Positions 1-34,429 of a DNA stretch of 64,000 nucleotides are shown in pieces. Position numbers and translations under genes: made by a program. The notes beneath the pieces were generated by a model, which searched no databases, was not told the origin of the DNA, and worked only from the letters and a program-made list of their open reading frames with translations. Every line of letters begins with the position of its first letter. The first letter of the stretch is position 1. Origin of the DNA: Eimeria praecox (taxonomy: Eukaryota); assembly GCA_963920595.1 (NCBI GenBank), contig OY986948.1, positions 2,170,001 to 2,234,000 on the forward strand, written 5' to 3'.

Positions 1-3000
1 GGAAGAAGTATATCCTTCAAATCAGATCGAAGACATCTGTAAACTCACCAATCCAAGAAGCCCGTCATCAAAGAGCGAGTTTAACCCATACACCAATGCA
101 TGTGAATCTGTGTAGAAGGATAGATAAGGAAACCACTGGCAGATATCATCTCCCACACTTGCGGGAAGGCTCACTTTCTGCAAGTAAGACACCGCACAAA
201 CCCCATCCAAGCCAAGAATACAATGCAATGCATGCATCCGTATGAATCTGCTAGTTCAACAATGCAGCAATGCATATAATAAATCCTTCGAATCAAATCA
301 AAAATATTAGATAAACTCGCCGATACAATAAACCCAGCGAAATGGTAGTTCAGTGGATTTTACACCACTGCATGGGAATCTGTGTCGAAGGACAAGGAAG
401 ACACTGACACATGCCATCTCTCTCGCATGGGCAAAAACGCTTACTGGCTGCAAGTCAGTCATCGCTCATGCTCCATCCAAGCCAAAATACAATGCAGTGC
501 ATGCCCTTCAAAGAATATGCCTGTTCAAGCATGCAGCAGTGCAGGAAGAAGTATATCCTTCAAATCAGATCAAAGACATTTGTAAACTCACCAATCCAAG
601 AAGCCCGTCGAAAAGCGAGTTTAACCCATACACCAATGTATGTGAATCTGCGTCGAAGGATAGATAAGGAAACCACTGGCAGATATATCATCTCCTACAC
701 TTGCGGGAAGGCTCACTCTCTGCAAGTAAGAAAGCGCACAAACCCCATCCAATACAAAAATACAATGCAATGCATGCGGAGGTATGAATCTGCCAGTTCA
801 ACAATGCAGCAGTGCATCTAATAAATCCTTCGAATCAGATCAAAGATAAACTCGCCGATACAATAAACAAACCAAAATGCTAGTTTTAGCGGATTTTATA
901 CCACTGCATGTGAAACTTTGTCGAAGGAGAATGTAGCCACTGGCACAGGCCATGTCTATCCCGCATGGGCAAAAAAAAAGCTTACTGCCTGGAAGTCATT
1001 CATCGCGTAAACACCATCCAAGCCAAAATACAATGCAGTGCATCCCTTCCTAAGAATCTGGCTGTTCAAGGGTGCAGCAATGCATCTAATAAAACCTTCA
1101 AATCAGATCAAAAATATTAGATAAACTCGGCGATACAATAAACCCACCGAAATGGTAGTTTCAGTGGATTCTACAACCACTGCATGTTAATCTGTGTCGA
1201 AGGACAAAGAAGCCACTACCACATGCCATATTTATCTCTTATGGCGAAAAGAGCTTACTCCCTGCAAGCCATTCATCGCACAAACCCCATCCAAGCCAAA
1301 ATACAATGCAATGCATGCCCTTCTGTGAACCTGCCCGTTCAACCATGCAGTAATGCATCAAGAAATAAATCCATCGTATCAGATCAAAAATATTAGTTAA
1401 CTCGCCGATACAATAAACCCACCGAAATGTCCGTTCGGGCGACGTTCGCAACCACTACGTGTGAATCTGTATCGAAGGACTAGGAAGACACTACCACATG
1501 TTATATCTCTCTCGCATGCGCAAAAGGACCTTACTGTCTGCAAGCCATTGACCGCTCAAACCCCACCCAATACAAAAATACAATGCAATGCATGCTTCCA
1601 AAGAATCTGGCTGTTCAAGCATGCAGCAATGCATCTAATAAATCTTTCAAATCAGATCAAAAATACTAGTTAACTCGCCCATACAAAAAAACATACCAAA
1701 ATCCTAGTTTCAGTGGATTCTACAACCACTGCATGTTAATCTGTGTTGACGGACAAAGAAGCCACTGGCACTTGTCATATTTATCTCGCATGGGCAAAAG
1801 GAGCTTACGTCCTGCAAGCCATTCATCGCACAAACCCCATCCAAGCCAAAATACAATGCAGTGCATGCATTCCTATAAATATGCCTGTCAAGCACGCAGC
1901 AGTGCAGGAAGAAGTATATCCTTCAAATCAGATCGAAGACATCTGTAAACTCACCAATCCAAGAAGCCCGTCATCAAAGAGCGAGTTTAACCCATACACC
2001 AATGCATGTGAATCTGTGTAGAAGGATAGATAAGGAAACCACTGGCAGATATCATCTCCCACACTTGCGGGGAAGGCTCACTTTCTGCAAGTAAGACACC
2101 GCACAAACCCCATCCAATACAAAAATACATATGAATATGCCTGTTCAAGCATGCAGCAGTGCATCAAGAAGTATATCCTTCAAATCCGATCAAGGACATC
2201 TGTAAACTCACCAATCCAAGAAGCCCGTCGAAAAGCGAGTTTAACCCATACATCAATGCATGTGAGTCTGTGTAGAAGGATAGATAAGGAAACCACTGGC
2301 TGATTTCATCTCCCACACGTGCGGGGAAGGCTCACTTTCTGCAATTACGACACCGCACAAGCCACATCCAATACAAAAATACAATGCAATGCATGCATAG
2401 GTATGAATCTGCCAGTTCAACAATGCAGCAATGCATCTAATAAATCCTTCGAATCAGATCAAAAATATTAGTCAACTCGCCCATACAAAAAACACACCAA
2501 AATCCTAGTTTCAGTGGATTCTACAACCACTGAATGTTAATCTGTGTCGAAGGACAAAGAAGCCACTGGCACATGTCATATTTATCTCTTATGGCGAAAA
2601 GAGCTTACTCCCTGCAAGCCATTCATCGCACAAACCCCATCCAAGCCAAAATACAATGCAATGCATGTCCTTCTGTGAACCTGTCCGTTCAAGCACGCAG
2701 CAATGCATCAAGAAGTAAATCCGTCGTATCAGATCAAAAATATTAGTTATCTCGCCGATACAATAAACCCAAAGAAATGCCCGTTCCGGCGACGTTCGCA
2801 ACCACTACGTGTGAATCTGTATCGAAGGACTAGGAAGACACTACCACATGTTATATCTCTCTCGCATGCGCAAAAGGACCTTACTGTCTGCAAGCCATTG
2901 ACCGCTCAAACCCCACCCAATACAAAAATACAATGCAATGCATGCTTCCAAAGAATCTGGCTGTTCAAGCATGCAGCAATGCATCTAATAAATCTTTCAA

Positions 3001-6000
3001 ATCAGATCAAAAATACTAGTTAACTCGCCCATACAAAAAAACATACCAAAATCCTAGTTTCAGTGGATTCTACAACCACTGCATGTTAATCTGTGTTGAC
3101 GGACAAAGAAGCCACTGGCACTTGTCATATTTATCTCGCATGGGCAAAAGGAGCTTACGTCCTGCAAGCCATTCATCGCACAAACCCCATCCAAGCCAAA
3201 ATACAATGCAGTGCATGCATTCCTATAAATATGCCTGTCAAGCACGCAGCAGTGCAGGAAGAAGTATATCCTTCAAATCAGATCGAAGACATCTGTAAAC
3301 TCACCAATCCAAGAAGCCCGTCATCAAAGAGCGAGTTTAACCCATACACCAATGCATGTGAATCTGTGTAGAAGGATAGATAAGGAAACCACTGGCAGAT
3401 ATCATCTCCCACACTTGCGGGAAGGCTCACTTTCTGCAAGTAAGACACCGCACAAACCCCATCCAAGCCAAGAATACAATGCAATGCATGCATCCGTATG
3501 AATCTGCTAGTTCAACAATGCAGCAATGCATATAATAAATCCTTCGAATCAAATCAAAAATATTAGATAAACTCGCCGATACAATAAACCCAGCGAAATG
3601 GTAGTTCAGTGGATTTTACACCACTGCATGGGAATCTGTGTCGAAGGACAAGGAAGACACTGACACATGCCATCTCTCTCGCATGGGCAAAAACGCTTAC
3701 TGGCTGCAAGTCAGTCATCGCTCATGCTCCATCCAAGCCAAAATACAATGCAGTGCATGCCCTTCAAAGAATATGCCTGTTCAAGCATGCAGCAGTGCAG
3801 GAAGAAGTATATCCTTCAAATCAGATCAAAGACATTTGTAAACTCACCAATCCAAGAAGCCCGTCGAAAAGCGAGTTTAACCCATACACCAATGTATGTG
3901 AATCTGCGTCGAAGGATAGATAAGGAAACCACTGGCAGATATATCATCTCCTACACTTGCGGGAAGGCTCACTCTCTGCAAGTAAGAAAGCGCACAAACC
4001 CCATCCAATACAAAAATACAATGCAATGCATGCGGAGGTATGAATCTGCCAGTTCAACAATGCAGCAGTGCATCTAATAAATCCTTCGAATCAGATCAAA
4101 GATAAACTCGCCGATACAATAAACAAACCAAAATGCTAGTTTTAGCGGATTTTATACCACTGCATGTGAAACTTTGTCGAAGGAGAATGTAGCCACTGGC
4201 ACAGGCCATGTCTATCCCGCATGGGCAAAAAAAAAGCTTACTGCCTGGAAGTCATTCATCGCGTAAACACCATCCAAGCCAAAATACAATGCAGTGCATC
4301 CCTTCCTAAGAATCTGGCTGTTCAAGGGTGCAGCAATGCATCTAATAAAACCTTCAAATCAGATCAAAAATATTAGATAAACTCGGCGATACAATAAACC
4401 CACCGAAATGGTAGTTTCAGTGGATTCTACAACCACTGCATGTTAATCTGTGTCGAAGGACAAAGAAGCCACTACCACATGCCATATTTATCTCTTATGG
4501 CGAAAAGAGCTTACTCCCTGCAAGCCATTCATCGCACAAACCCCATCCAAGCCAAAATACAATGCAATGCATGCCCTTCTGTGAACCTGCCCGTTCAACC
4601 ATGCAGTAATGCATCAAGAAATAAATCCATCGTATCAGATCAAAAATATTAGTTAACTCGCCGATACAATAAACCCACCGAAATGTCCGTTCGGGCGACG
4701 TTCGCAACCACTACGTGTGAATCTGTATCGAAGGACTAGGAAGACACTACCACATGTTATATCTCTCTCGCATGCGCAAAAGGACCTTACTGTCTGCAAG
4801 CCATTGACCGCTCAAACCCCACCCAATACAAAAATACAATGCAATGCATGCTTCCAAAGAATCTGGCTGTTCAAGCATGCAGCAATGCATCTAATAAATC
4901 TTTCAAATCAGATCAAAAATACTAGTTAACTCGCCCATACAAAAAAACATACCAAAATCCTAGTTTCAGTGGATTCTACAACCACTGCATGTTAATCTGT
5001 GTTGACGGACAAAGAAGCCACTGGCACTTGTCATATTTATCTCGCATGGGCAAAAGGAGCTTACGTCCTGCAAGCCATTCATCGCACAAACCCCATCCAA
5101 GCCAAAATACAATGCAGTGCATGCATTCCTATAAATATGCCTGTCAAGCACGCAGCAGTGCAGGAAGAAGTATATCCTTCAAATCAGATCGAAGACATCT
5201 GTAAACTCACCAATCCAAGAAGCCCGTCATCAAAGAGCGAGTTTAACCCATACACCAATGCATGTGAATCTGTGTAGAAGGATAGATAAGGAAACCACTG
5301 GCAGATATCATCTCCCACACTTGCGGGGAAGGCTCACTTTCTGCAAGTAAGACACCGCACAAACCCCATCCAATACAAAAATACATATGAATATGCCTGT
5401 TCAAGCATGCAGCAGTGCATCAAGAAGTATATCCTTCAAATCCGATCAAGGACATCTGTAAACTCACCAATCCAAGAAGCCCGTCGAAAAGCGAGTTTAA
5501 CCCATACATCAATGCATGTGAGTCTGTGTAGAAGGATAGATAAGGAAACCACTGGCTGATTTCATCTCCCACACGTGCGGGGAAGGCTCACTTTCTGCAA
5601 TTACGACACCGCACAAGCCACATCCAATACAAAAATACAATGCAATGCATGCATAGGTATGAATCTGCCAGTTCAACAATGCAGCAATGCATCTAATAAA
5701 TCCTTCGAATCAGATCAAAAATATTAGTCAACTCGCCCATACAAAAAACACACCAAAATCCTAGTTTCAGTGGATTCTACAACCACTGAATGTTAATCTG
5801 TGTCGAAGGACAAAGAAGCCACTGGCACATGTCATATTTATCTCTTATGGCGAAAAGAGCTTACTCCCTGCAAGCCATTCATCGCACAAACCCCATCCAA
5901 GCCAAAATACAATGCAATGCATGTCCTTCTGTGAACCTGCCCGTTCAACCATGCAGTAATGCATCAAGAAGTAAATCCGTCGTATCAGATCAAAAATATT

Positions 6001-7430
6001 AGTTATCTCGCCGATACAATAAACCCAAAGAAATGCCCGTTCCGGCGACGTTCGCAACCACTACGTGTGAATCTGTATCGAAGGACTAGGAAGACACTAC
6101 CACATGTTATATCTCTCTCGCATGCGCAAAAGGACCTTACTGTCTGCAAGCCATTGACCGCTCAAACCCCACCCAATACAAAAATACAATGCAATGCATG
6201 CTTCCAAAGAATCTGGCTGTTCAAGCATGCAGCAATGCATCTAATAAATCTTTCAAATCAGATCAAAAATACTAGTTAACTCGCCCATACAAAAAAACAT
6301 ACCAAAATCCTAGTTTCAGTGGATTCTACAACCACTGCATGTTAATCTGTGTTGACGGACAAAGAAGCCACTGGCACTTGTCATATTTATCTCGCATGGG
6401 CAAAAGGAGCTTACGTCCTGCAAGCCATTCATCGCACAAACCCCATCCAAGCCAAAATACAATGCAGTGCATGCATTCCTATAAATATGCCTGTCAAGCA
6501 CGCAGCAGTGCAGGAAGAAGTATATCCTTCAAATCAGATCAAAGACATCTGTAAACTCACCAATCCAAGAAGCCCGTCATCAAAGAGCGAGTTTAACCCA
6601 TACACCAATGCATGTGAATCTGTGTAGAAGGATAGATAAGGAAACCACTGGCAGATATCATCTCCCACACTTGCGGGGAAGGCTCACTTTCTGCAAGTAA
6701 GACACCGCACAAACCCCATCCAATACAAAAATACATATGAATATGCCTGTTCAAGCATGCAGCAGTGCATCAAGAAGTATATCCTTCAAATCCGATCAAG
6801 GACATCTGTAAACTCACCAATCCAAGAAGCCCGTCGAAAAGCGAGTTTAACCCATACATCAATGCATGTGAGTCTGTGTAGAAGGATAGATAAGGAAACC
6901 ACTGGCTGATTTCATCTCCCACACGTGCGGGGAAGGCTCACTTTCTGCAATTACGACACCGCACAAGCCACATCCAATACAAAAATACAATGCAATGCAT
7001 GCATAGGTATGAATCTGCCAGTTCAACAATGCAGCAATGCATCTAATAAATCCTTCGAATCAGATCAAAAATATTAGTCAACTCGCCCATACAAAAAACA
7101 CACCAAAATCCTAGTTTCAGTGGATTCTACAACCACTGAATGTTAATCTGTGTCGAAGGACAAAGAAGCCACTGGCACATGTCATATTTATCTCTTATGG
7201 CGAAAAGAGCTTACTCCCTGCAAGCCATTCATCGCACAAACCCCATCCAAGCCAAAATACAATGCAATGCATGTCCTTCTGTGAACCTGTCCGTTCAAGC
7301 ACGCAGCAATGCATCAAGAAGTAAATCCGTCGTATCAGATCAAAAATATTAGTTATCTCGCCGATACAATAAACCCAAAGAAATGCCCGTTCCGGCGACT
7401 TTCGCACCCCTGCGTGTGAATCTGAATCGA
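1..7430. repeat. Near-identical higher-order repeats of 3256 bp (12 monomers) and 1350 bp (5 monomers)
   Basis: Identical ORF-track peptides recur at offsets of 3256 (353/3609, 1184/4440) and 1350 (1733/3083; near-identical at 5790/7140). Cassette positions follow the same offsets (175/3431, 1259/2609). Confidence 0.95.
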
Positions 7431-10400
7431 AGGACTAGGAAGACACTACCACACGTTATATCTCTCACATGGGCAAAAGGAGCTTACTAGCTGCAAGTCA
7501 TTGACCGCTCAAACCCCACCCAATACAAAAAATACAATGCAATGCATGCTTCCAAAGAATCTGGCTGTTCAAGCATGCAGCAATGCATCTAATAAATCCT
7601 TCGAATCAGATCAAAAATATTAGTTAACTCGCCCATACAAAAAACACACCAAAATCCTAGTTTCAGTGGATTCTACAACCACTGCATGCTAATCTGTGCC
7701 GAAGGACAAAGAAGCCACTGGCACATGTCATATTTATCTCGCATGGGCAGAAGGAGCTTACTCCCTGCAAGCCATTCATCGCACAAACCCCATCCAAGTC
7801 AAAATACAATGCAATGCATGCCCTTCTGTGAACCTGCCCGTTCAAGCATGCAGCAATACACCAAGGAATAAATCCGTCGTATTAGATCAAAAATATTAGT
7901 TTACTCGCCGATACAATAAACCCACCGAAACGTCCGTTCGGGCGACTTTCGCACCACTGCGTGCGAATCTGTATCGAAGGACTAGGAAGACACTACCACA
8001 TATTATATCTCTCACATGGGCAAAAGGAACTTACTAGCTGCAAGTGATTGATCGCGCAAACCCCATCCAATACAAAAATACACTGTCTGTTCAAGCATGC
8101 AGCAATGCATCTAATAAAACCTTCAAATCAGATCGAAAATATTAGCTAACCCGCCCATATAAAAAACACAACAAAGTGCTAATTGCAGCAGATTTTACAC
8201 CCACTGCATGTGAATCGAAGGAGAAGGAAGCCACTGGCAGATATCATCTCGCGCGCTTGAGGGTAAAGCTCACTTTCTGCAAGTGAGACATCGCACAAAC
8301 CCCACCCGATACAAAAATACAATTCAATGCATGCCTTTATAGGTATATGCACGCTCAGCGGTGCAGCCGTGGAGCAAGAAACAAATCTGTCGTATCAGAT
8401 TAAAAATATTAGTTAATTCGCCGATACAACAAACCCACAGAAATGCTAGTTTCAGCAAAATTTGCACCACTACATGTGAATATGTGTCGAGGACAAGGAA
8501 GCCACTACCACATGCCATACTTATCGCTGATGCGCAAAGGGAGCTTACTCCCTGCAAGTCATTCATCGCTCAAACCCCACCCACGCCCAAATACAATGCA
8601 ATGCATGCCCTCTGAACCTGCATGTTCAAAGATGCACCAATGCAGCAAGAAGTATAACCTTCAAATCAGATCAAAAATATTAATTAACTTGCCGATACAA
8701 CAAACCCACTGAAATGCTCGTTCCGGCCATTTTTATACCCCTCTATGTGAATCTATGTCGACGGTCAAGGATGCCACTGGCACATTTCATACCTATCTCG
8801 TCTGGGCAAAAAAAATACTTACAACCTGCAAGTCAGTCATCGCTCAAGCCCCATGAAATATAGAAATACAATGTAAAGCATATCCTGTGAACCTGCACGT
8901 TCAAATATGCACCAATACAGCAAAAAATATATCCTTCAAATCAGATCAAAAATATTAATTAACTCGCCAATACAAGAAAGCGACGGAAATGTTAGTTTGA
9001 GCGGAGTCTACATCACCGCATGCCAGTTTGTGTCGACGGACAAGGAAGCCATTGGAACATGCCATCTATCTATCTCCCATGGGCAAAAAGCCTTACTGCC
9101 TGCAAGTCACTCAGCACTCAAACCCGATGCAATACAAAAATACAATGCAATGCATGCCTTTCCAAGAATCTGCCTGTCCAAAGAAGCAGCAGTGCAGCAA
9201 AGAATATATCCCTCAAATCGGATCAAAGGCATCTGTAAACTCACCAATCCAACAAACCCGCCGAAAAGCGGGTTAAAGTCATATACCACTGCATGTGAAT
9301 CTGTGCCTAAGGACAAGGAAGCCACTGGCACACGTCATATCTCTCGAGAATGGGCAAAAAAAGCTTACTCCCTGCAAGCCATTCATCGCACAAACCCCAT
9401 CCAAGCGAAAATACAAAGAAGTGCATTCCTATCACAGATGCAGCAATGCACCTAATAAAGCCTTCGAATCAGATCAAAAATATTAGTTAACTCGCCCATA
9501 CAAAAAACACACCAAAATGCTAGTTCCAGTGGATTCTACACCACTGCATGTGAATCTGGGTCGAAGGACAAGGAAGCCCCTACCACATGTCATATATCTA
9601 TCGCATCGGCAAGAAGAGCTTACTGTCTGCAAGACATTCATTGCTCAAACCCCATCCAACACTAAAATACAACGCAATGCATGGCTTTGTGGATCTTCCC
9701 GGTCCAGGATGCAGCCATGGAAGAACAAGCATGTCCTGCAAATCGGAGCAAAGCTATGTGTAAAATCACCAATCCATGAAACCCACCGGAAAGCGAGTTT
9801 AAGCCATACTGCATGTGAGACTGTGTCGAAGGACAAAGAAGCCACTGGCACATGCCAGATCTATTTCGCATGGGCAAAAACACTTACTACCTGCAAGCCA
9901 GTCATCCCATAAACCCTACCCAATATAAAAATACAATGTAATGCATGCCTCAGAATCTGCCTGTTTAAGGATGCAACAATGTAGCAAGAAATGTATCCTT
10001 CGAATCAGATCAAAAATACTAATTAACTCGCCGAAACAACAAACCAACGGAAATGCTAGTTTCAGCGGATTTCACATCACCGCATGTGAATCTTTGTCGA
10101 AAGACAAGGAATCCATTGACACATGTTATGCCCATCTCTCATCGGCAAAAAAAGCTTACTGCCTGCAAGGCATTCACGGCTCAACTCCCATCCAATACTA
10201 AAGTACAATTCAATGCATGCCTTTCTAGCTATATGCACGCTCATCGATGCAGCCGTGCAGCAAGAAACAAATCCGTCGATCAGAGTAAAAATATTAGATA
10301 ACTCGCCGATACAACAAACGAACGGAAATGCTAGATTCAGCAAATTCTACACCACTGCATGTGAATAAGTGTCGAAGGACAAGGAAGTCGCTGGCACATG

Positions 10401-13400
10401 CCGTATCTATCGCGCATGGGCAAAATGCTTACTTCCTGCAAGTGAAACATAGCTCAAACCCCACCGAAGCCAAAATACAATGCAATGCATGTCCTCTGAA
10501 CCTGCATGTTCAAAGATGCACCAATGCAGCAAGAAACATATCCTTCAAATCAGATCGAAAATTAACTCGCCGATCCAATTAACCCATCGAAATGCTCGTC
10601 CCGGCGATTTTTACACAACTGCAAGTGAATCTGTGTCGATGGACAAGGGAGCCACTGGCGGATGCCATATCTATCTCGCGTGGGCAAAAAGACTTACTAC
10701 CTGCAAGTCAGCCATCGCACAAACCCCAACCAATATAAAAGTACAATGTAATGGATGTCCTCCTGTGAATCTGCACGTTCAAAGATGCACCAATGCAGCA
10801 AGAAATATATCCCCCAAATCGGATCCACAATATTAATTAACTCGCCGATACAACAAAGCGACGGAAATGCTACTTGTAGCAGGTTTTACACAACTGCGTG
10901 CGAATCCGTGTCGACGGCCAAGGAAGCCACTGGAGCACGTCATATCTATCTCGCATGGGCAAAAATAGCTTACTGCCTGAAAGTCATTCAGCACTTAAAC
11001 CCCATCCAATACAAAAATACAATGCAATGCATGCCTTTCTAGAGCCTGCCTGTTCAAAGACGCAGCACTGCAGCAAAGAAGTATATCCTTCAAATCAGAT
11101 CAAAGGCACCTGTAAACTAACTAACCCAACATGCCTGTCGAAAAGCGAGTTTAACCTGTACAGCAATGCATGTGAATCTGTGTCGAAGGATAAGGAAACC
11201 ACTGGCAGATATCATCTCCCACACTTGCGGGGAAGGCTCACTCTCTGCAAGTAAGACACCGCACAAACCCCATCCAAGCCAAGAATACAATGCAATGCAT
11301 GCATTCGTATGAATCTTCCAGTTCAACAATGCAGCAAAGCATCTAATAAATCCTTCGAATCAAATCAAAAATATTAGATAAACTCGGCGATACAATAAAC
11401 CCACCAAAATGCTAGTTTCAGTGGATCTTACACCACTGCATGGGAATCTGTGTCGAAGGATAAGGAAACCACTTCCACATGCTATATCTCGCATGGGCAA
11501 AAGGAGCTTACTCCCTGCAAGGCATTCATCGCTCGAACCCCATCCAATACAAAAATACAATGCAATGCATGCCTTTCTGTGAACTTGCCCGACCCAGGAT
11601 GCAGCTGCACAACAGAGCAAAGTTATGTGTAAACTCACCAATCCATGAAATCCGCCGGAAAGCGAGTTCAAGCCATGCATCACTGCATGTGTGACTCTGT
11701 AGAGGGACAAGGAAGCCATGGGCGCATGTCAAATCTATCTCGCATGGACAAAAAAAACTTACTACCTGCAAGTCATTCATCGCGCAAACCCCATCCAAAG
11801 AAAAATGCAATGTATTGCATGTCTTTCTGTGAACCAGCGCGTTCAAAGGCCCACCAATGCAGCAAGATCAAAAATATTAGTTAACTCGTCGATATAAGAA
11901 ACCAACCGAAATGTTCAGCAGGTTTTACACGACTCCGTGAGAATCTGTGTCGACGGATAAAGAAGGCACTGGAACATGTCATACCTATCTCGCATGGGCA
12001 AAAAAACTTACTGCCTGCAAGGCATTCACCGCTCAAACCCCATCCGATACAAAAATACAATGCAATGCATCCATTTCTAAGAATATGCCTGTTCAATGAT
12101 GCAGCGAAGTAGCAAGGAATATATCCTTCAAATCAGACCAAAGGCATCTGTAAACTCACCAATCCAAGAAACCCGCCGAAAAGCTAGTTTAAGCCATAAA
12201 CCACTGCATGTGAATGTATGTCGAAGGCTAAGGAAGCCTCTGGCCCACGCCAGATCTATATCACATGGACAAAAAAGGCTTACTCCCTGCAAGTCATTCA
12301 TCGCTCAAACCCCACCCAAGACCAAAATACAATGCAGTGCATGCCTTCCTATCAATCTGCCTGTTCAAGGATGCAGCAATGCAGCCAGGAATAAATGCGT
12401 CGAATCAGATCAAAAATATTTGCTAATCTGCTGATAGAAAAAACCCACCGAGATGTCTCTTTCAGCGGATTTTACATCAATGAATTCGAATCGGTGTCGA
12501 GGACAAGCAATCCACTGGCACATGTCAGATCTATCTCCTATGGGCAAAAGGAGCTTACCCGCTGCACGTCATTCATCGCCCAAACCCCAAGCAATATAAA
12601 AATACAATGTAATACATGTCCTTCTGTGAACCAGCACGTTCAAAGATGCACCAATGCAGCAAGAAATATATCCTTCAAATCAGATCAAAAATATTAATTA
12701 ACTCGCCGCTACAACAAGCCGACGGAAATGCTAGTTTCAGAGGATTCTACACCACTGCGTGCGAATCTGTCATGGAAGCCACTGGGACACGTACCTATCT
12801 CGCATGGGCAAAAAAATGCTTACGATCTGCAAGTCATTGATCGCTCAAAATCCATCCAATACAAAAATACAATGCAATGCATGCTTTCCTATGAATCTGC
12901 TTGTTCAAAGACGCAGCAATGCATCAAGAAATAAATCCGTTGTATCAGATCAAAAATATTAGCTAACTCGCAGATACAACAAACATGCCGAAATGCTCGT
13001 TTCAGCGGAATTTGCACCACTGCATGTGAATCTTTGCCGAAGGACAAGGAAGCCACTGGCACATGACATCTCTCTCCTGCAGGGGAAAAAAGCTCTTACT
13101 CCCTGCAAGCCATTCATCGCCCAAAACCCATCCAATACAAAAATAGAAGGCAATGCACGTCTTTGTGAAATTGCCTGTTCAAAGCCCGAGCAGTGGAGCA
13201 AGAAATATATCCTTCAAATCAGATCAAAATTATTTAACTCGCCGATACAACAAACCCACCGACATCCTAGTTCTAGCGGATTTTACATCACTGCATGTGA
13301 ATCTGTGTCGAAGCACAAGGAAGCCACTGGTACATGCCATGTCTATCTCGCATGGGCAAAACAAGCTTACTCCCTGGAAGTCATACAACGCTCAAACCGC

Positions 13401-16400
13401 ATCCGATACAGAAATACAATGCAATACATGCCCATCTAAGAATCTGCCTGTTCAAGGATGCAGCAGTGCAGCACGAAGCATATCCTTCAAATCAGATCAA
13501 AAACATCAATAAACTCACCAATCCAAGAAACCCGCAAAAAAGCGAGTTAAAGTCATGCAGCACTGCATATGAATCTGTGTCGAAGGACAAGGAAACCCGT
13601 GGCCGATATGATCTCTCGCGCTTGCGGGAAAAGCTCACTTCCTGCAAGTGAGATATCGCTTAAACACCATCCAATACAACAGTACAATGCAATGCATATC
13701 CTTCTAAGAATCTGTCCGTTCACAAACCCAGCAGTGTAGCAAAGAATATATCCTTCAAATCAGATCAAGAATATCAGTAAACTCACCAATCCAGCAAACC
13801 CACCGAAAAGCGAATTTAAGCCATACACTGCATGCGAATCTGTGTCGAAGGCCAAGCAAGGCACGGGCGCATGTCATATCTATCTCGCGTGGGGAAAAAA
13901 TGCTTACTGGCTGCAAGCCATTCATCGTTCATATCCCATCCAATACAAAAATACAATGCAATGCATGCCTAAGCATATGCCTGTTCAAAGATGCACCAAT
14001 GCAGCAAGAAATATATCCTTCGAATCAGATCAAAAATATTAGTTAACTCGCCGATACAATAAACCCGCAGAAATGCTAGTTTCAGCGGATTCTACACCCA
14101 CTGCATGTGAATCTGTGTCGAAGGACAAGGAAACCACCGGCGCATGTCATATCTAGCTCGCATGGGGAAAAGGAGCTTACTGGCTGCAAGCCATTCATCG
14201 CTCAAACCCCATCCAATACAAGAATAAAATGCGATAGGTGTCTGCCTCAGAATCTGCATGCTCAAGGATGCAGCAATGTCGTAAGAAAATTATTATTCCC
14301 TTCGAATCAGGTCGAAAATATTAGTTAACTCCCCAATCCAAGAAACCCAGCGAAATGCTAGTTTCAGCGGGTTTTACACTAATTCGCGGAATTCCATGTC
14401 GATGCAGAAGGAAGCCACTGGCACATGCCATGTCTCTCATGGACAAAACAAGCTTACTAGCTGCAAGCCACTCATTGCGCAAACCCCATCCAATACAAAA
14501 ATAGAAGGCAATGCAAGCCATCTAAGAATCTGCCTGTTCAAGGATGCAGCAATGCAGCACGAAACATATCCTTCAAATCAGATCAAAAACATCAGTAAAC
14601 TCACCAATCCGAGAAACCCGCAAAAAAGCGAGTTAAAGTCATACAGCACTGCGTATGAATCTGTGTCGAAGGACAAGGAAACCCGTGGCCGATATGATCT
14701 CTCGCGCTTGCGGGAAAAGCTCACTTCCTGCAAGTGAGATATCGCTTAAACACCATCCAATACAAAAGTACAATGCAATGCATGCCTTCCTCAGCTTCCT
14801 TCTTTTCAAGGGTGGAGCAAAGCGGCATGAAATATATCCTTGCAATCACGCCAAAAATATTAACTCGCCGATACAACAAATCCACCGAAATGCTAGTTCG
14901 GGCAATTCATACATCACTGCATGCGAATCTGCGTCGAAGGACAAAGATGCCACTAGCACATGCCATATCTGTCTCGCATGGGGAAAAAAAGCTTACTCCC
15001 TGCACGTGGAACATCACTCAAAACCCATACAAAAACAGAATGCAATGCATGCCTTTCTAAGAACCTGCCTGTTCAACGATGCAGCAATGCCGCAAGGAAT
15101 AAATCCTTCAAATCAGATCAAAAACATTACTTAACTGGCCCATACAAAAAACCAACCGAAATGCTAGCTTCAGCGGATTCTACACCACTGCATGCGAACC
15201 TTTGTCGAAGGACAAGGAAGCCACTGGTGCATGCCATATCTATCTCACATGGGCAAAAAGAGCTTACTATCTGCAAGCCATTTATCGCCCAATCCCCATC
15301 CAATACAAAAATACGATGCAATGCATGCCCTTCCAAGGATATGCTGCTCAAGCATGCAACAATGCAGCAAGGCGTATATCCTTCAAATCAGATCGAAAAT
15401 CTTAGTTAACTCCCCCCCCCAAAACTTACTCCCTGCAAGTCGTACATCGCTCAAACCCCGTCCAATAAAAAAACAATGTAATGCATGTCCTCTGAACCTG
15501 CCTGATCAAGGATGGAGCAATGCGGCAAGAAATCTACCCTTCAAATCAGGTATGATCGAGGATTGAGCCATGCAACTAATGTATCCTTCAAATCAGGTCA
15601 AAAGCATTAGCTAACTCGTCGATACAACAAACCGACGGAAATGCTAGTGTCAGCGGATTTTACATTACTGCATGCGAATCTATGTCTAAGGACAAGGAAG
15701 CGGCTGGCACATGCCATATCTATCTCGCATGGGCAAAAAAACCTTACTGCCTGCCAGTCATTCAGCGCTTACGCACCACCCAGTACAAAACTGCATTCCA
15801 ATGGATAGCTTTATCAAACTCTGCCTGTTCAAGCATGCAGCAGTGCAGCAAGAAATATGTCCTTGGTATCAGATCAAAGACATGTGTAAACTCACCAATC
15901 CAAGAAATCCGCCAAAAAGCGAGTTTAAGCCCTACATCGCTGCATGCGAATGTGTGCCAAAGGTCCAGGAAGCCACTGGCGCATCTCGCATGGGCAAAAA
16001 AAACTTACTACCTGCACGTCATTCACATCTCAAACCCCCTCCCAGACAAAAATACAATGCATCTCCTTCTTAGAGTCTGCATGTTCAAAAATGCACCAAT
16101 GCAGCAAGAAATATATCAGATCGAAAATATTAGTTAACTCGCCGATACAACAAACCCACCGAAATGCTAGTTCCAGCGGATCTTACATCACTGCATGTGA
16201 ATCTGTGTCGAAGCACAAGGAAGCCACTGGCTCATGCCATGTCTACCTCGCAGGGGCAAAAAAACCTTACAACCTGCAAGACATTCATCGCTCCAACACC
16301 ATCCAATAGAAAATAAAACGCAATGCATGTCCTTTTGTGAGGCTGCGCGCTCAAAGGCGTAGCAATGCGGCTAGAAATATATCCTTCAAATCAGATCAAA

Positions 16401-17625
16401 AACATAAGTAAACTCACCAATCCAAGAAACCAGCCGGAAAGCGAATGTAAACCATACAGCATGTGCATGTGAATCGGTGTTGGAGGGAAGGAAACCAGTG
16501 GCAGATATCATCTCCCGCACTTGAGGGAGAATCTCACTCTCTGCAAGTAAGACATCGCTCAAATCCCATCCAATATAAAAATACGATGCAAAGCGTGTCT
16601 CTGCGAACCTGCCTGGTCGAGGTTTGAGCGATGCAACAAATATATCCTTTGAATCTGATCCAAAATATTAGTTAACTCGCATATACAACAGATGCACCGA
16701 AATGCTGGTTTTAGCGGATTTTACACCACTGCGTGCGAATCTTTATCGAAGGACAAGGAAGCCACAGGCACATGCCATACCTACCTCGCATGGAGGAAAA
16801 AATGCTTACTGGCTGTAAGTAATTTATCGCTCAAACCCCACCCAACACAAAAATAGAATACAATGCGTGGCTTTCTGTCAATCTGCCCGCTCGAGGATGG
16901 AGCTGAGCAGCAACAAACATCCTCGGAAATCAGATACCAGTAAGCTCACCAATCCAAGACACCCGCTCAAAACCGTGCAGCCATACATCACTTGCATGCA
17001 AATCTGTGTCGAACGACAAGGAAGCCATTGCCATATGTTATATCTATCTCGCATGGGCAAAAAGAGCTTACTAGCTGCAATTCATTCACCGCACAAACCC
17101 CATCCAATACGAAAAACGATGCAATGCATGCCTTTCTAAGAATCTGCATGTTCAAAGACGCAACGATGCAGCAAGAAATATATCCTTCAAATCATATCGA
17201 AAATATTAGTTAACTCCCCGCTACAACACACCCACCGACATGCTAGTTCCAGCGGATTCTACACCACTGCATGTGAATCTGTGTCGAAGGACAAGGACAC
17301 CACTAGCGCATGCCATATCTATCGCGCATGGGCAAAAACACTTACTCCCTGCAAGCCATTCATCGCTCAAACCCCATCCAATAAAAAAAAATACAATGCA
17401 ATGCATGCCTTTCTATGAATCTGCCTGTTCAATGATGCAGCGGCGCAGCAAGAAAGAAATCCTTCGAAGCAGATCAGAAATACTAGTTAACTCGACGGCA
17501 CAATAAACCCACCGAAAAGCTATTTTCAGTGAATTTTACACCACTGCGCGTGAAGCTGTGTCGAAGGACAAGGAAGCCACTGGCACATGCCATATCTCTC
17601 CCGCATGGGCAAAAAAGCGTACTCG
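175..17625 (-). CDS. 66 consecutive 3-nt exons, one per satellite monomer, encoding RGLPRVVAGIGELPPEGGIRGAVGRAVEAVTGAVGKLGLGKKDTGKKDTGARPKDTGKKDTGARPK
   Basis: Lowest plus coordinate and minus-strand codon, in transcription order: 17623 CGA, 17346 GGA, 17072 CTA, 16810 CCA, 16538 AGA, 16271 GTT, 16009 GTA, 15748 GCA, 15430 GGA, 15268 ATA, 14997 GGA, 14725 GAA, 14458 CTA, 14181 CCA, 13908 CCA, 13639 GAA, 13371 GGA, 13100 GGA, 12824 ATC, 12559 CGG, 12284 GGA, 12012 GCA, 11763 GTA, 11512 GGA, 11242 AGA, 10974 GCA, 10698 GTA, 10433 GAA, 10160 GCA, 9888 GTA, 9624 ACA, 9369 GGA, 9097 GCA, 8823 GTT, 8549 GGA, 8274 AAA, 8035 CTA, 7762 GGA, 7488 CTA, 7215 GGA, 6942 AAA, 6688 AAA, 6415 GAC, 6141 ACA, 5865 GGA, 5592 AAA, 5338 AAA, 5065 GAC, 4791 ACA, 4515 GGA, 4242 GCA, 3973 AGA, 3701 CCA, 3431 AAA, 3159 GAC, 2885 ACA, 2609 GGA, 2336 AAA, 2082 AAA, 1809 GAC, 1535 ACA, 1259 GGA, 986 GCA, 717 AGA, 445 CCA, 175 AAA. 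All are flanked by CAG and GTAAG/GTGAG (one GTACG). Confidence 0.82.
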
Positions 17626-20600
17626 CTGCAAGCCATCCATCGCTCAAACCCCATCCAACACAAAAATACAATGCAATACATGCCTTTCTATGAATCTGCC
17701 TATTGGAAGATGCAGAAATGCAGCAGCAAATATGTGCAAAAAGCCGAACAAAATGTGTATTGATAAGCCCGCCCTCCGAACTAGCAAGAATCCTGAAAAG
17801 CTGCGTTGAGCAATATACCCGCGCAAGTCAATCCTCCTCGAAGGGCTTTCTCCTACAAAGTATCTGCCTGACGTAGATAGCAAGCAAATCGCTCCCACTT
17901 CCTAAGTGGCTTTTGTCGCTACTTTAGCGCACTCTCTGCAGAAGAAGGCGTTAAAGAGAATAACTTGCTTGAACGGTAAACAAAAGCATAAATTGTGTCT
18001 GCTTGCTAAGAGCCCGAATTACCGGAACCAGCATGCTCCCTGCAAGTGTGCAGCCTTCGCACAAGGGGTGGTGCTGCTGCAAGCGAGTGCGTAGCATGGC
18101 CTGGGATAGACGACGCACATCCTGCAAATCCATGTTCTACCCCTATTCCCTTTGCGAGCATTCCTAAGCCCTACAGCCCTACGAAATAAAGTGGACGTCA
18201 GTATAGTACTGAAGAGAGCCGGATGGTCTCACTATTCCCGGTGAAGACAGCATAAGCAGCACCATTTAGTCAGACATTCTTCCAGTTGCATCGATGTCCA
18301 GGTACACCTGCACTTTCCCCCGAATCCGGTAAGTCCTCGCACCTTCGCGAAAGCAGGGCAAAAACAATCCTGTCACCACTGTTGCGCATCCAGTCGGTCA
18401 CATATAGATTTAACCACATGCGCAGCTTGAAGGCGCAACTCCTTCCTGTCCCGATATGGTTGCCAAGAAGGTAGCAGTAGGTAACAGAGGTCCGCCAGGC
18501 ACACACCACTGCTTTTCAACGGGGACTCTGTACCACGCAATCCAACGCGATGTCGGCAGGGAAGTGCAGTGAATGGTCGAAAGTGTTTAAACTTGAATCT
18601 AGTTAGCGCCCAAGTGCAAGAAGCCGAACACTACTGCTAAGAGCTCTATAATGCCATCAGGGGCATTGTTCGTGTATCAGGCTGCTTCAGTAACCACATT
18701 TGCCTCTGGGTATCGAATATACCCTGTAAGTATCGGATAAGAAAATGTTACACCTGGTGCTTAGCTTATTAGATGCAATGAGATTCCCCACATTACTGTG
18801 CACATCAATCTGAACCGCGAGGCTCGCCCGAGCGGTCTACACCTTTGACCAAGCTCTAGTAACTGTCGTAATGGCCGCCCTCACGACCTAAGCAGCCTTG
18901 GTTGAGTGGGCCGCAATCGACGGCGAGCGCATCCTCTGCACTGTAAACACTGGTGCTGACGTACTGCCTGTGCCGTGATTTGCATATACGTTGCGCCACG
19001 TTGCGGCATGCAGAAGTGCCCCTAATGCCACAGCCCTAAGTATATCTGCCAAAATGTGTCGGTAACCTTCCTTCAGGTAAACCAGTGCGCCGACAAAGTG
19101 TGCCTTTCTAAGGATCTAACGCATTGCCTGCTTTCCAAGGCAGACGAGAAGCATGCTGCAGAAGCATGCTGCAATTAGCAAGAAACCGCTGCCGTTCTGG
19201 TATTCAACCATGGTACACTCCTACACTGCACAAGAATTTCTCCTTCGAATTCCTTCTTCCTTGTCACGTAGCGCACGTCCTGCACGATTAGAAATAATGC
19301 AAAAAGAACGCATTGGCATTCAAGCATGAACAACACTTCCTACGCAAGAAACGATTACACACTAAAACAGACTAGTGACTCCGAAACTGCTTGCACTGCA
19401 GCATCTCTTCCATGCAAAACGAAAATGAACCCACTTTCTGTGCAATCCCACAGCCGCAACACTGCATCAAACAGCTTCAGCAAGGCGATATGCGAAAACC
19501 CGAATATCTCCCTGGTGGACGCCTGCCTCAAACGGCGCAATGCTTGCCATGGTTATCATGCTAAAGGTGTTTTCACACACCAGCAAGATGTGCAGCATAC
19601 AACTGCATATTATTTTCGTGAAGTCGGCAGCAATCGTACGCGATGCAAGCCGACCACCGCTGAAATCTCGTATGATAATAGGAAATGAGACGCATGAGGC
19701 AGGCTTAATACAGCTCACTGCCGCCATTACACGCCGCTTGCAACTGTTGCAGATGCTCTCATTTGTATTGTCAACCTCAGGATGAGAATGTAGCCTACGT
19801 CCTGGGACAGGAAAAATCACTGCATGGTAAAACAAGAAGTGTCATGCATAGTTATTCTGCATATCCACAGAAAAGGGTCGTGCATCTCTCCGATCAAGCC
19901 CTACAGAAACGAATGCGCATTGTTTGTTAACGAGGTATTCTACCGCCAGGCCTCCAAATGGCCTGCCCAAATCGCCGGGTGAGATATGGAGCCGCACAAG
20001 CTGCACAGGTAAGAATAAAAAGTCAACACCCCTCACTCAAAGGCCATGAATTTCATATACCTACTGGGAGGTCGGCAAGCGTTGCCGAAACCCTTCGCAC
20101 TGCATCGCTTCTTGCATGCGGGATGGCATTGGACTCTCTTCATGAGCAATCCCACCGAAGTACCAGCCCGTCAAATGGCCTCAGAATCACGAGACACAAG
20201 CCCAATTTTGCTCAGCTCAGAATGTCCTTTGCAAATAGTGCAATCATGATCACGCCGCAGCTGTTAGCAAGTACAAGCAATTTGCTCATCCGTTCGATTG
20301 CATGTTGCCGTCCATCACCCGATACGTTCCACAAGCGAGGCTTCGCAGTGAAACCCTTGTGCAGGTCAACCCAACAGCGTTGACCACAACATTTGCACGG
20401 TAACAGAATGCACTATCAATGCTATATGTCAACTATTCGCCAACGCAAATCTATGCCAGAAAGATAGCATACACTGCTTGTAGAATAACTGAAGCCTCGC
20501 CCAACAGACTAACCCCAAATCAGATGGAGAATCGCACTCTCTGCACAAAACAAATTCATTAGTGCGCTTGTTTAGCAATCGCAAACAAGCAGCATATCCC

Positions 20601-23600
20601 TGAAGCGCAATTGCTTAGCACTGACAACTCAATTCGCTGTATAGGAAGGAAGCCCATGTTGCAGCCTCATATGTTTCAATGCCCTACCCTCAAAATCTTC
20701 CTTCCGAACCTCTTTTGACAAACTCCTGCAAAACTCTAGAAGAGGCAGATCCCATCCCTGAGGAACCCGTACACAACCGAAACCCGCGCATTTGCACGGC
20801 TGGCAATAGTCTACCTACTCTCTAGTGGTGGAAGATCAAGAGAGCATTTGCTTTCCACATTGCAGCAGACCCCATACGCAGGCCTATTTGTCTTTGGCAA
20901 CTATGCAGCCACGTTCTGCTGTGTTGCAGATTGCACTACCGGGGGCTGCGCTCCGTCTGCCAAGGAAAGTGTGTCTGCTATAAGCTAAATTAGGAGTTCA
21001 TTACGTTGTACACGAGATAGTTGCCTGCCTGGATAGTTGCCTGCCTGGTGCTTTGTCTGCAGAACGTGCCCCTGCAACACTGATCTGTTTCTCCTTGTTA
21101 CTGGTAGTATTTATTGTATGCAGCGTCTGCTAAAAGTGAGGGAGCATACTTGCTGCAAGTGATGGAACCGGGGAGCACAAAAGGAGACACCTCGGGGGAG
21201 GCGCAGATGGCAACGTGGAGAAACCATAGCAAATACAAAAGCACTTGCGTCGGTTTTACCTCTAGGCTGCTTCGAATGCTCTGTGCATCAAACCAAACCA
21301 GCCGACGGCGTTTACCTGCAGCCACCTTCAAAGCAACCCTTACTTCCTGAGCCGAGGAAAGCACCCACCAAAGATCACTTGAACACAGCCCCTCAATCTT
21401 GCATATACACAACGCATATTTTCTTTGCACCCCTAATCTCTCAATAGTATCTTGCTCGTCAAACCAGACCGGCCAATGATGCTCAGGTGCTGTTGCCCTG
21501 CAAAGCAAGGCTCACTTTCTGGGCGGGGTAATAAGGCCATCCATCACCTTGCTTTTGAGATGCCCCACGACTCTTGCTGGCGTCTACGAAAAATGAATGT
21601 ATCCCAAATCCGTGCTGGCTCAATATTGGGCTCCCGGTGCCTCTCTTGCAATTGTCACCATCCTAATAACATATTGATGCCCACTGTATCCCCATGTTGT
21701 CAAGAGTGCCTAGAGCGCCAAGCTGCAGCCATTTTGCAAAGGAAGCCTCACTTTCTGAGGCGAGAAATAAAATCATAACATCGTTACAGGCTTCAAGAAT
21801 TCTGCATCTGCCTTCCTTAGCATGATCAAAGCATTCCTATCCCAAGTCTGCATACTTGACGCCTCGCTCTCGGCGGCCCTATGGAACACCGCATGCACGA
21901 AGTTGCGTGCAAAAAACAAAACAAGCATATGCTCGTCAAGCCGAAACATCACATCGGCAGGAGGAAGCACACATCATCACAAGCGTCCTGACATTCGCTG
22001 CAGCATGAAAAGTGCGCACAAGCATACCTAGGTGGTAACGTACGTACTGGCACCAAACACCAACCTGTTGCTGCCTTACAGCTGAACAATGTTCAGCCCT
22101 AGAACCGGCACTAACCTGATATAGAAAGTTCTTGTTGTTCGTCGAATGTCCCCTCCAGTGTGTGCAACTCACTTTCTGGGGGATGGGGTACCCGCTTTTT
22201 TGAACCATCCTCTTGAACGGCCTATGCCCGTAGGAGATTCACCACCACCGGCATCTGCTTGATGCCAAGAGAGTGGCGGCGGCAGATGTATTGGACTGCA
22301 GCATGCCGCAGCAACCTAATGCCGACACTGCAGCCTCGCGTGCAATTACGCACGCTGATACGTACGTCGCCATGGAGTAAGATTGAACACAGGAACTAAA
22401 TATCCTGCTCCGCGGCTTCTGGCATGCAGCTGCTTACTCTCTGTGCAGAAGTATACAAGCCCAAAATCTAGCTCGTTACCTTACAAGGTAAGGTTCTGCA
22501 AACCAAGTTCTAAAGGACAATAAACAGTATGCGCGGGTCACACTGTTTAGAAAGCTCCTTACCGTCTAAACCAGAAAAGGACCACCGCACCGACAGCAAT
22601 AAACTCCTCCTAGCCATTCCTTTAGTAGAAGCAGCTCTGTATGCGTTCATTGTCATAAGCGCAATAGGCCACACAATCTGCCCCCCATGAAACGGTAACG
22701 GTTTTATCTTGTATCTGCTACTTCATCTGAAGAACAAGAACTACTTACCGCCTGCGCAACAAGCAGCCGCTTACCGAAGAGGCCTTCCCTACACGAAGAC
22801 GGACTATGTGGTGCAGAGAAACTGCGTTTCCTTATTGTATTAACACTCCAGGAGCCCACTGCACAGCCTATTGCTCTACACTTCAACAAATTGAACGCAC
22901 ATCCTGCACGTTCCATCGGCCTTACCGCGTGCTCTATTGTATAGTTTGACTGCTGCAAATGAAAAAAGCCTGAAGGGGATCCATCTAACTCCACCGCCCG
23001 ACGCACAGTGAGAATGCACGAAGCCTTCAACAGAACTTTCCACAGCTAGCAGCACTCAGACATCCTGGCTCTCATCTGAATGTGCGGACGCCGACGCACC
23101 TCCTTTAGCAAATAATCACTCGCTATCTAGCCTTCATCAAAAGCCGCACAGAAGTACCCCCAGAACTCATTTTGGATGCTGCGAGCGCCCAACCGATATA
23201 ATGACCACAACACCACTCACTCGCTGAAACAAATATATCCACACTGACAACGCCAATGAATTCGTACCAATCATGACCAATACGAAAAAGCTTCGGATTC
23301 TTATCGCCTTCCTGACAGTAAATAATTCCCCCAGCCCGTGGAATGTAAGGGCCTTCAACACTTCCGACTTACACCCTGAGCATGGAGAATCCCCAGCCAC
23401 TCCGATTCCTCGCCAATTGGGAACCGTCGCCAGGCCAAAACGTTGTACTTAGTCTAGCTCCCGGAGGGTCCATGACACACTTGCTGAGCCGCAGAATGCC
23501 CACGGGCGAACCGCTTCCTGACGGGCAGGTTTACAATGGCACTTTCACAACGTCAGCCAATCTACTCTGACAGTCCACCTCGACAGGAAAATTGCTTCTG

Positions 23601-26600
23601 TGGCTTAGTACAGCGGCACGCAAGCTCCCTTGACCGGCTCCCTTATGCAGATTCGCATGTTAGAGGTATCTGCAGAGACGAAAACAGCCAAAAGCTCTGT
23701 GGGACTGTCTGAACAACTTAGCATTCCAAGACTCACAAGCTGCGATAATCCTGCTCCTTTATCAAATGCGCTTTCTTGCCAGGAAGAGAACTAGTAAATA
23801 TAGGCAGCAAGCAACCCAGAGAAGCGTTACTGCCGGATATATTAAAAGCGCATTATCTTGTTATAGAGATGCGTAACCTTGCTAGAATTAAAGCTCGGTC
23901 TGGAACAGGAAAACGTAGAACTCACCCACTGCAAGTCAGCGCAAGGTGAGATTTTAGCCCTTCTGGGAAGGAACGCTTCTCCTCCCTGTACCATTTAATC
24001 AAACATATCGCGGAAAATATCCCCATACATACCCTTAGTACATCCACAGCTCGTTCAGCAGGGTTGCATTGCTAGTTATGCCGAGCAACTAACGATCTGT
24101 GGGGATCGGAACGTCTTCATAGCTGTTGTGACGTTTCTCCAGAGTTTGCCATTTATGGGGGGCGGCAAACTCGCAAAGGGAAGCCTTTCTGGCGGTAAGA
24201 ACTAGCGAGAGACAATCTTTGAGGTGGCGGAAAGAGGGTGCCGCGCTGCTGCTGCAACGTTCATGGGAAGGATCTACGCTAATTCCACAGATTACCTACC
24301 GTGATGCAACACGCCTTCCCCGTTATTGTCACTCGCTGTTTCCCTTGTGCAGATATTGTGGATGCTTGAAATATCTACAACAAACCACCGGTTTCGAGCA
24401 CCCCGCTTACTAGCTGCATTCTCGACAAATCGCATTACCAGTGCCTCAAACTCACAAACGCTCTGCAACTTTACTAGAGCTAGAAAGCCTGGCAGCATCT
24501 GTCCAACGCAATACCAGCAAGCTCCCCATCGCAATCAGACTGAGGTGTCTAACGCATTCGTTACCCCAATCTGTAATGGATAACTCCCAGTGAGCCAACA
24601 GTGCAGGCTTGCCAAAGCATCCGTGTTATCTCCCTCCTTTTCTACTCACCTCGCGACTAACAAAGAGGTGCATAGAGCCCGCCTGTTGGAAGTGACCACT
24701 TCGTAAGAACTCGACGCTGCATCCAGACGCACATACTGGTGTTAAAGCCACTTCCCCACTGCCGACATCACTAACGAGGGGCCCAGCAGCACAGAAGCAC
24801 AACAGCCCAGCATGTGAGGCCTCCCTTTGCAGCATATGCCGTCATATCTTGCTCCCTGGCATTCCGGCCGCAAAGCATGATATCATCATGTGGTGCCCAA
24901 TCACTTACTCCCTGAAAAATACAAATCCCATATTGCCACAGCGATCATGCGCAGCAGGGAGCAGGTAAGAATGCACGCACCGTATCGGTAAGACAAGCGC
25001 AAGGCCATACATGGAAAACCATCATCGAGTACGTTTGCACTGGAACCAAGATGGCATTTTAACTTAGTATGACTCGTTCCAATATTTGCTCCTCCTCACG
25101 CACAAACTGCGATTCCAGTTTCATGCACACCACTGCGAACTGCGTCAGCTAGGCAACAGCAGGGTCAGCAACCAAAGGGGAGAAACGTTCCCAGCCGTGG
25201 CATTGAGCGCAGAATGGCAAAAGCATGAATATACGGTGACTAACACGCGCTAACACTACTACACCCTTGGAACCCAATTGGCAAAAACACCTAGCAACCT
25301 GTCATCCTGCCCACTTTCTGGATGTGCCATGGCCGAGACCTAAGGATGGGCGAAAAATATGAGATTGCATCCACACACTATCGGTGAAGCCGCATTTCAG
25401 CCCCTGTTGGAGGTGTCTGTGTGACGCTGCGGCAGAACCCATTCACAAATACCCTAGTACTATACATATAGTATGAGACTACTTGTTAATGGCGATAAAG
25501 ACCAACACTGCTCAATATCGTTTGCTCCGGAAATCTGCGATATGTGGCCTACTGCCTTTATACGTTGATGAGCAGGTAAGTCACAAGAGTCGCACGCTGC
25601 GACGCTCTGGCAGTCTTAGAAATCCCTGCACAAATCTGCAGGGGGCACTTCGGATACCTGCGTTAGTAACCTTCACGAGGCTGGACTTTAGCGCACTGTT
25701 CGCATATTGCTATGGCTAGGCGTGAGGGCAACGCACATTCTAAACCAACCAAAGGCAAATTCAACAGGCAAATTCAACAGGAACTAAGGCTTTAGGCGCG
25801 CGGCAGTATCACATGGTGAAGCTGAATCCCTTCCCTACCTAGCCAATATTTGTCAATCACAAGCACTTAAGCAGCACTAAATCTCGAGTACTAATATCGA
25901 TGCCGGCCGCCATCAGGACGGAGCAGCCGCAACGGTATCATCCCCGTGAAGCGGGTCATTCAAGCTCACAACAGGAAAGCTCGGGAGTAAGACGAGGAGC
26001 ACCTTCGAACAACCGGCCTCTCTCCAACCGTGGCATTCTGGACCAACAGTCCTCTCCATCAAAGGACCCGACCAAAACCAAAAACTCCTGTAATATGTGT
26101 TTCTTATTCCCTCCACGCACAGGCTGTAGCAGCGAAAAATTCGAGAGCTTGTACCGTCAGTATACAAATCCACACAGGCAACTTGGCTGCGCAGTTCTTT
26201 TCCCTCGTCGCCAAAGAGCACAGCTAATAAAAGACAAGCCTGATATCGACTAATCCTGGTGACACACATCCTGTGAGAGCGAAATGATCCCTGGAATTAT
26301 TCCTTATAACCCCCTCACATAGCGCATGCAATCACTGTGCATCCCTGTGCATCCCACGAAGATTCTGATGAGGCCTCCTTGCATCAGGCAGCGGTACCGT
26401 CTCCTGCTGAAACATCTCAACGGCACCTCAGCCAAAGTAAATGACAAGCAAAGTGCTCGTGAAAATACCAGGGAGCAAGAAGGCCTGCCCATGAACATAC
26501 GCAAACTTGAATTGCAAAAATAAATTCTATTGACGCCATACTATGGACCTAGATAGGCACAATTAGGGCTGGCAATACCTAGGCATGCACTACCAGCCAC

Positions 26601-34378: not shown

Positions 34379-34429
<51 letters not shown>

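Follow-up and report, generated by a model that had tools for sequence, protein, structure and literature searches.

A candidate gene of more than 200 one-codon exons on the minus strand of a 64-kb window of Eimeria praecox

Codon-sized microexons in the nank genes of the truffle Tuber melanosporum are reportedly the subject of Iotti et al. 2012. Three papers describe these NACHT-ankyrin genes as carrying tens of codon-sized exons that are alternatively spliced (PMC4986451, PMC10197012, PMC13449251). The MEGs of Schistosoma have a signal peptide and 10-20 exons, whose lengths range over 3-81 nt but are mostly 15 nt (PMC10526429); in Coprinopsis cinerea, long-read-based models give 27 exons of 3 nt, spread over 26 genes of the whole genome (PMC12230235). 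We describe a stretch of 64,000 nucleotides from Eimeria praecox (assembly GCA_963920595.1, contig OY986948.1, positions 2,170,001 to 2,234,000), hereafter the window. Its minus strand holds ~230-250 sites at which exactly three bases stand between a splice acceptor and a splice donor. We discuss the spacing of these sites, the behavior of the enclosed triplets, and the explanations that compete for them.

These sites are very likely true one-codon exons. As a full explanation, we consider it likely that the locus is a protein-coding gene with one in-frame codon per exon, which would have grown by tandem duplication of an intron together with its codon. The window falls into three parts (Table 1): a tandem array at its left end (array 1), a unique region upstream of it on the minus strand (positions 17761-52500), and a second array at its right end (array 2).

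Three-base spacing and codon-like triplets in the unique region

Repeats are scarce in the unique region, where 786 of 34,740 bases are self-matching. The pattern YAG-NNN-GTRHG, counted there by a model-free regular expression, occurs 120 times on the minus strand and 5 times on the plus strand, and 100 dinucleotide shuffles yield 9.8 +/- 3.1 occurrences with a maximum of 18. Other spacings between acceptor and donor, from 0 to 60, give 3-19 minus-strand sites each. Spacing 3 is enriched ~12-fold in this non-repetitive DNA, on the same strand as array 1. Neighboring introns are as dissimilar as shuffled ones, with a median identity of 0.40 vs 0.39 over 98 introns. Gaps of less than 100 nt number 3 of 122, against 37 expected at random, and along the chain spacings below 97 nt are nearly absent; the candidate exons avoid each other in the way true exons must.

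Of the 305 AG-NNN-GT sites, a mixture model takes ~150 as real; their donors are GTGCG, GTGAG, GTACG, and GTAAG, and their acceptors are mostly CAG. Over the whole window, 228 minus-strand sites vs 5 plus-strand sites score >0.8, and 249 vs 11 score >0.5; these model counts, unlike those of the regular expression, are partly circular in the unique region, on whose minus strand the model was trained.

The enclosed triplets behave like codons. Stops are absent from the 121 high-score upstream triplets, where 5.5 are expected (P 0.0014), and present 10 times among 131 low-score AG-NNN-GT sites. In the upstream triplets G is frequent at base 1, and A and T are frequent at base 3; between them the triplets specify each of the 20 amino acids. 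Codons of the form NAG are rare (2 vs 17 NAA), we infer because NAG would create a second, tandem acceptor. Alanine is clustered, with 7 Ala within 11 calls (shuffle P 0.0005), in a run whose members each lie between unrelated introns (Table 1), and charged residues cluster weakly upstream (P 0.03). Two shifted frames were tried and rejected: one gives 7 stops in array 1 and 2 upstream, and the other 0 in array 1 but 9 in 77 upstream pairs.

Longer exons leave little trace in the same region. No spacing except 3 is enriched up to 60, and strong donors that lack an AG five bases before them number 52 on the minus strand vs 36 on the plus strand, so longer exons are few at most. One clean-looking candidate exon of 6 nt lies at 46828-46833 (minus) between TTGCAG and GTAAG, and spacing 6 is not enriched overall. 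Candidate exons with a strong donor and an AAG acceptor in place of YAG fill gaps in the chain at 43266, 33171, 30194, 45604, 28461, and 23102 (minus). The sole sizeable duplication of the unique region, 166 nt at 77% identity, is at 41272-41860, and a GT microsatellite occupies a presumed intron at 34381-34427. Repeat motifs associated with coccidia gave no support for such an origin: the heptamer shows no enrichment, and the octamer occurs 2 times upstream.

Array 1 and the history of its codons

The monomers of array 1 were defined as BLAST matches of one monomer against the window, with the splice motif left out of the definition. This yields 66 units, and Tandem Repeats Finder reports a repeat of 271-277 bp at 169-17733. 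The introns measure 159-315 nt (median 269) and run from GT to AG without exception; donors are GTAAG, GTGAG, and once GTACG. The first candidate exon is at 17623-17625 and the last at 175-177 (minus), and the chain continues past the left end of the window. Retention of any of the 65 introns results in a stop or a frameshift.

An earlier note on this DNA had read positions 1..17740 as an intron array in which AC and CTG lie exactly 3 nt apart in all monomers around a hypervariable triplet of 15 values. The array stands, although those coordinates take in only about a quarter of the candidate exons. The spacing was recovered in 66 of 66 monomers, as CAG-NNN-GT on the minus strand (AC-NNN-CTG on the plus strand), and 15 distinct triplets were counted: GGA 15 times, AAA 9, GCA 7, CCA 5, ACA 5, and the rest at most 4 times each. 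Mean pairwise identity is 75.5%, and invariance is rare. Nine of 251 well-occupied alignment columns are invariant, six at the splice signals (C, A, G, G, T, and the donor +5 G) and three at intron T columns.

The hypervariability of the triplet, for which the note expected an entropy maximum at positions 1-2, held in part. Position 2 has the highest entropy (1.97 bits), a rank that one intron column shares in the 66-monomer alignment; position 1, at 1.44 bits, ranks 9 of 251 and drops below the top 12 once near-copies are removed; position 3 is at background, being A in 58 of 66 monomers. The 66 monomers are not independent and reduce to 49 distinct ones at 97% identity or to 44 at 90%, because monomers 40-66 are 5-, 7-, and 12-unit repeats at 98-100% identity.

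Rates were read from a tree that was built from the intron columns of the 49 distinct monomers, with 231 held-out intron columns for comparison. On this tree 0 changes fall on CAG, GT, and the +5 G. Triplet positions 1, 2, and 3 show 15, 24, and 5 changes; the held-out columns average 5.3, with 4 of 231 invariant, 2 reaching 15, and none reaching 24. Bases 1-2 thus evolve ~3-5 times faster than the introns, and base 3 at the intron rate. The unchanged splice signals, together with the AG-NNN-GT spacing among unrelated upstream introns, point to purifying selection on splice sites, as had been proposed; diversification of the codon would apply to positions 1-2 and not to position 3.

A neutral satellite or an assembly artifact that carries AG-NNN-GT by chance would look different. 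Substitutions would fall regardless of splice signals or codon position, which is not what array 1 displays, and at least five adjacent invariant columns are unexpected given the scarcity of invariant intron columns. Any motif of a founder monomer would indeed be copied to all its descendants, three intron columns are likewise invariant, and monomers 40-66 are nearly identical, their copy number being that of the assembly. Yet the enrichment of spacing 3 in non-repetitive DNA of the same strand, the tree test, and the distances between sites already contradict chance, independent DNA reads cover part of the unique region (see below), and we regard this explanation as barely credible.

The codons of array 1 form a narrow set. 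Of the 49 distinct units, 44 have A at base 3, vs 53 of 123 upstream triplets (P 7e-9), base 1 is never T, and 11 amino acids occur, which suggests descent from one NNA codon. The amino acid (P 0.001) and base 1 (P 0.013) track the intron tree, as if codon and intron had been copied together. These features fit a history in which an intron and an NNA codon were duplicated and amino-acid-changing substitutions followed. They fit less well with a history in which the codons are old and persisted as a single intron family spread across them, through gene conversion or unequal crossing-over, in which case the triplets would appear variable without having diversified. In favor of that unlikely course, changes at base 2 do not follow the intron tree significantly (24 vs 26.5 permuted, P 0.12), and the upstream chain holds varied codons already in place between unrelated introns; against it stands the NNA-derived set, unlike the codons upstream. 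Bearing on an introner or mobile intron family, the 66 monomers give only 4 short matches (23-34 nt) to the 35-kb unique region.

Within array 1, monomers 40-66 follow a higher-order period of 12 units, or 3256 bp, and would, if spliced, encode short peptide repeats rich in Gly, Lys, Asp, and Thr. Most introns carry a second donor-like motif (GTGAGT or GCGAGT) ~150 nt in, and 24 strong donors in the array lack an AG five bases before; the motif may have been left over from an older unit of half the size. The idea that each monomer holds a second exon, formed by internal acceptor-like and donor-like motifs, was considered and rejected: the pair occurs in 29 of 65 introns only, at lengths of 53-62 nt in all three classes modulo 3, and stops are frequent. 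Structured RNA is not indicated, with 0 Rfam matches at gathering score in the window and a fold of one array 1 intron that is not unusually stable (z -1.43).

Table 1. Features of the window and of three metagenome loci. Positions are those of the window, except for the metagenome loci.
Feature	Position	Strand	Description
Array 1	37..17757	minus	66 units, each one intron and one 3-nt candidate exon
Youngest part of array 1, monomers 40-66	37..7348	minus	5-unit and 7-unit blocks at 98-100% identity
Older part of array 1, monomers 1-39	7349..17757	minus	nearest-neighbor identity mostly 76-87%
Chain in the unique region	17933..52260	minus	~120-150 candidate one-codon exons, mutually unrelated introns, median spacing ~186 nt
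53-nt island	23064..23116	minus	alignable in second haplotype, both flanks replaced; single case
Ala run	28935..30194	minus	7 Ala codons in 8 successive calls, each between unrelated introns
Array 2	52470..64000	minus	nested duplications, 29 candidate one-codon exons
Metagenome locus L001	44-5619		74 candidate one-codon exons, 64-72 nt units
Metagenome locus L073	3886-13822		65 candidate one-codon exons, 64-72 nt units
Metagenome locus L029	9569-11819		28 candidate one-codon exons, 64-72 nt units

Reads, array 2, and the extent of the proposed gene

Three public runs from two studies contain this region, none on record as RNA. The read check spans 17800-34300, and the three DNA runs cover that span in 30 of 30 bins. 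A second haplotype or paralogue is present there at ~half depth. The two haplotypes or paralogues, nearly equal in depth, are common to the 2013 and 2023 samples, with tracts fixed differently in each. Among 40 of the 556 substitutions, none changes a splice dinucleotide at 68 sites, against 0.66 expected, which is uninformative, and 1 of the 40 falls in a triplet, where it is synonymous at base 3. The 53-nt island of Table 1 holds candidate exon 23100-23102 with both its splice sites.

Array 2 consists of ~2.2-kb blocks at 72-91% identity and a 272-bp unit at 93-98%. One of its copies has a GC donor (62584-62586, minus) in place of the GT found in its two homologues. A presumed intron contains a 107-bp tandem repeat in two copies (62368-62585). 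Strand asymmetry over 50000-64000 is pronounced, with GC skew down to -0.44 and AT skew up to +0.33 (plus); elsewhere in the window the skew keeps its sign but is milder. At 50911-52213 (minus), at the largest gaps of the one-codon chain, there is a cluster of seven unpaired strong donors, a possible sign of a gene boundary or of a longer first exon.

Several observations weigh against a single protein-coding gene. Array 2 is leaky, AG and GT being kept at 32 of 41 homologous positions; of the nine positions without AG or GT, five lie in or beside two poorly scoring families that are possibly non-exonic, and array 2 may be decaying or belong to a separate gene. Gaps near 50.7-54 kb reach ~1 kb, and with the leakiness of array 2 this means that one continuous gene is not established. 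The partial circularity of the model counts belongs here as well, as does one intron column of array 1 that is nearly as variable as triplet position 2 (19 vs 24 changes). There is no clear branch-point motif. Hydropathy clustering upstream is not significant (P 0.11), and neither are helical-moment tests on the array 1 peptide (P 0.13, 0.06); a post-hoc test of aliphatic periodicity on that peptide gives P 0.04. No spliced read was seen; the runs that match the region, none of them recorded as RNA, say nothing on expression. Within the window no start exon or stop codon was found, nor any signal peptide or known domain, and Pfam gives 0 matches for the 11 of 85 window open reading frames scanned.

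The missing start, stop, and domain would suit real splice signals of a non-coding kind, and so would the dominance of one spacing. The sites would then either let a single very long intron be removed recursively or delimit exons that belong to an untranslated region or a non-coding RNA. Recursive splice points likewise place GT after AG, with zero bases between them. In the unique region, however, spacing 0 shows no excess, with 7 sites against the 120 found at spacing 3. In-frame stops are avoided, bases are biased as in codons, alanine is clustered, and in array 1 the rate of change at positions 1-2 exceeds that of position 3 and of the introns by a factor of 3-5. A non-coding function is accordingly improbable in our judgment, even more so than the spread of an intron over old codons.

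Under the protein-coding explanation, GT-AG introns would be removed one by one through intron definition, and with every removal the mRNA would become one codon longer. Stepwise intron definition is part of the general picture of microexon splicing. The window would present an age gradient, with unrelated introns the oldest, 75%-identical units younger, and near-identical blocks the youngest. After duplication, selection would keep CAG and GTRAG and favor amino-acid changes at codon positions 1-2, such that a new peptide would be built from an ancestral NNA codon. Every exon would be in phase 0, and the gain, loss, or skipping of an exon would add or remove one residue without a frameshift; the design could persist because such events keep the frame. 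We lean, by a little, toward a protein of >200 residues, possibly encoded nearly throughout by exons of a single codon each, spread over at least 64 kb; splicing would retain ~1% of the pre-mRNA. Such a gene would lengthen by unit duplication and selective rewriting of codons, and skipping might give variants with single-residue deletions.

A further step can be added to this explanation, with which it is compatible: the one-codon exons could serve mainly for combinatorial skipping, giving many protein variants per gene, with a receptor or secretion domain outside the window. Any subset of phase 0 exons stays in frame, amino acids change rapidly in array 1, and Tuber melanosporum offers a precedent in the alternative splicing of tens of codon-sized exons (PMC4986451, PMC10197012, PMC13449251). 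The upstream chain, with its 20 amino acids and local clustering, suits a fixed sequence better than an interchangeable pool of codons, however, and a NACHT or other long exon was not found in the 64 kb. We hold this extension to be a serious possibility that falls short of our preference.

If the candidate exons are spliced, the locus would represent an extreme of gene fragmentation, with >200 consecutive one-codon exons. Its introns are mostly unrelated, so the design would be old and maintained rather than a recent repeat accident. It would offer a direct test of how the spliceosome copes with many successive exons that are all too short for exon definition, and a route by which a new protein is built residue by residue, visible as an age gradient in one locus. 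"Intergenic" or "satellite" DNA of intron-rich eukaryotes could then hide such genes. Neither gene finders nor read mappers would see them, and annotations could lack an entire class of genes. They can be detected by counting AG-NNN-GT spacing on each strand separately.

Comparison with known systems

A metagenome scan with a gapped three-site pattern returned 113 loci, of which 35 pass a filter for varied triplets. None of the 113 is similar to the window apart from a GT microsatellite, and viral contigs gave 0 matches to the monomer pattern. The 35 filtered loci are mostly tandem units of 64-73 nt with 15-74 sites; a few, with units of 24-36 nt or 258 nt, are probably other repeats. Of three such loci whose reading frames were listed, L029 and L073 have the array just 3' of a NACHT-like and ankyrin reading frame, and one is without a long frame. 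Since the layout of these two is the published truffle layout, they serve as a positive control for the pattern. Loci L026-L028 hold 58 AG-NNN-GT sites with a 249-nt period and three triplets only; this could be an ordinary repeat, or else another such array with long introns.

In the full texts searched, among which most subscription journals are missing, no gene with hundreds of 3-nt exons was found. Codon-sized exons are already known from truffle NACHT-ankyrin genes; a series of this length with unrelated introns did not turn up.

Each described system shares some features with the locus. Schistosoma MEGs resemble it in that most of their coding region consists of very short exons which preserve the frame and alternate with longer introns; unlike theirs, practically all candidate exons here are 3 nt and number >200, which sets the locus apart from MEGs (PMC10526429). 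In Coprinopsis cinerea, internal exons of 3 nt occur at about one per gene, with no chain as here (PMC12230235). The LRR/TPR receptor genes of brown algae also duplicate and diversify units of exon plus intron within one gene, but each of their exons encodes a whole repeat, and here each would encode one residue (PMC13449251).

The truffle nank genes differ from the locus in having tens of exons, against ~230-250 here, and in their reported alternative splicing. A NACHT or ankyrin exon was not found within the 64-kb window, and the introns here are mostly unrelated to each other. They measure ~190-270 nt, against units of 64-73 nt in the metagenome arrays with the nank layout. What the locus has in common with nank, on the strength of its sequence signals, is a run of candidate 3-nt in-frame exons between spliceosomal introns. 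By this analogy it appears to work like the codon-exon system of truffles, a likeness of organization in which family membership is not shown.

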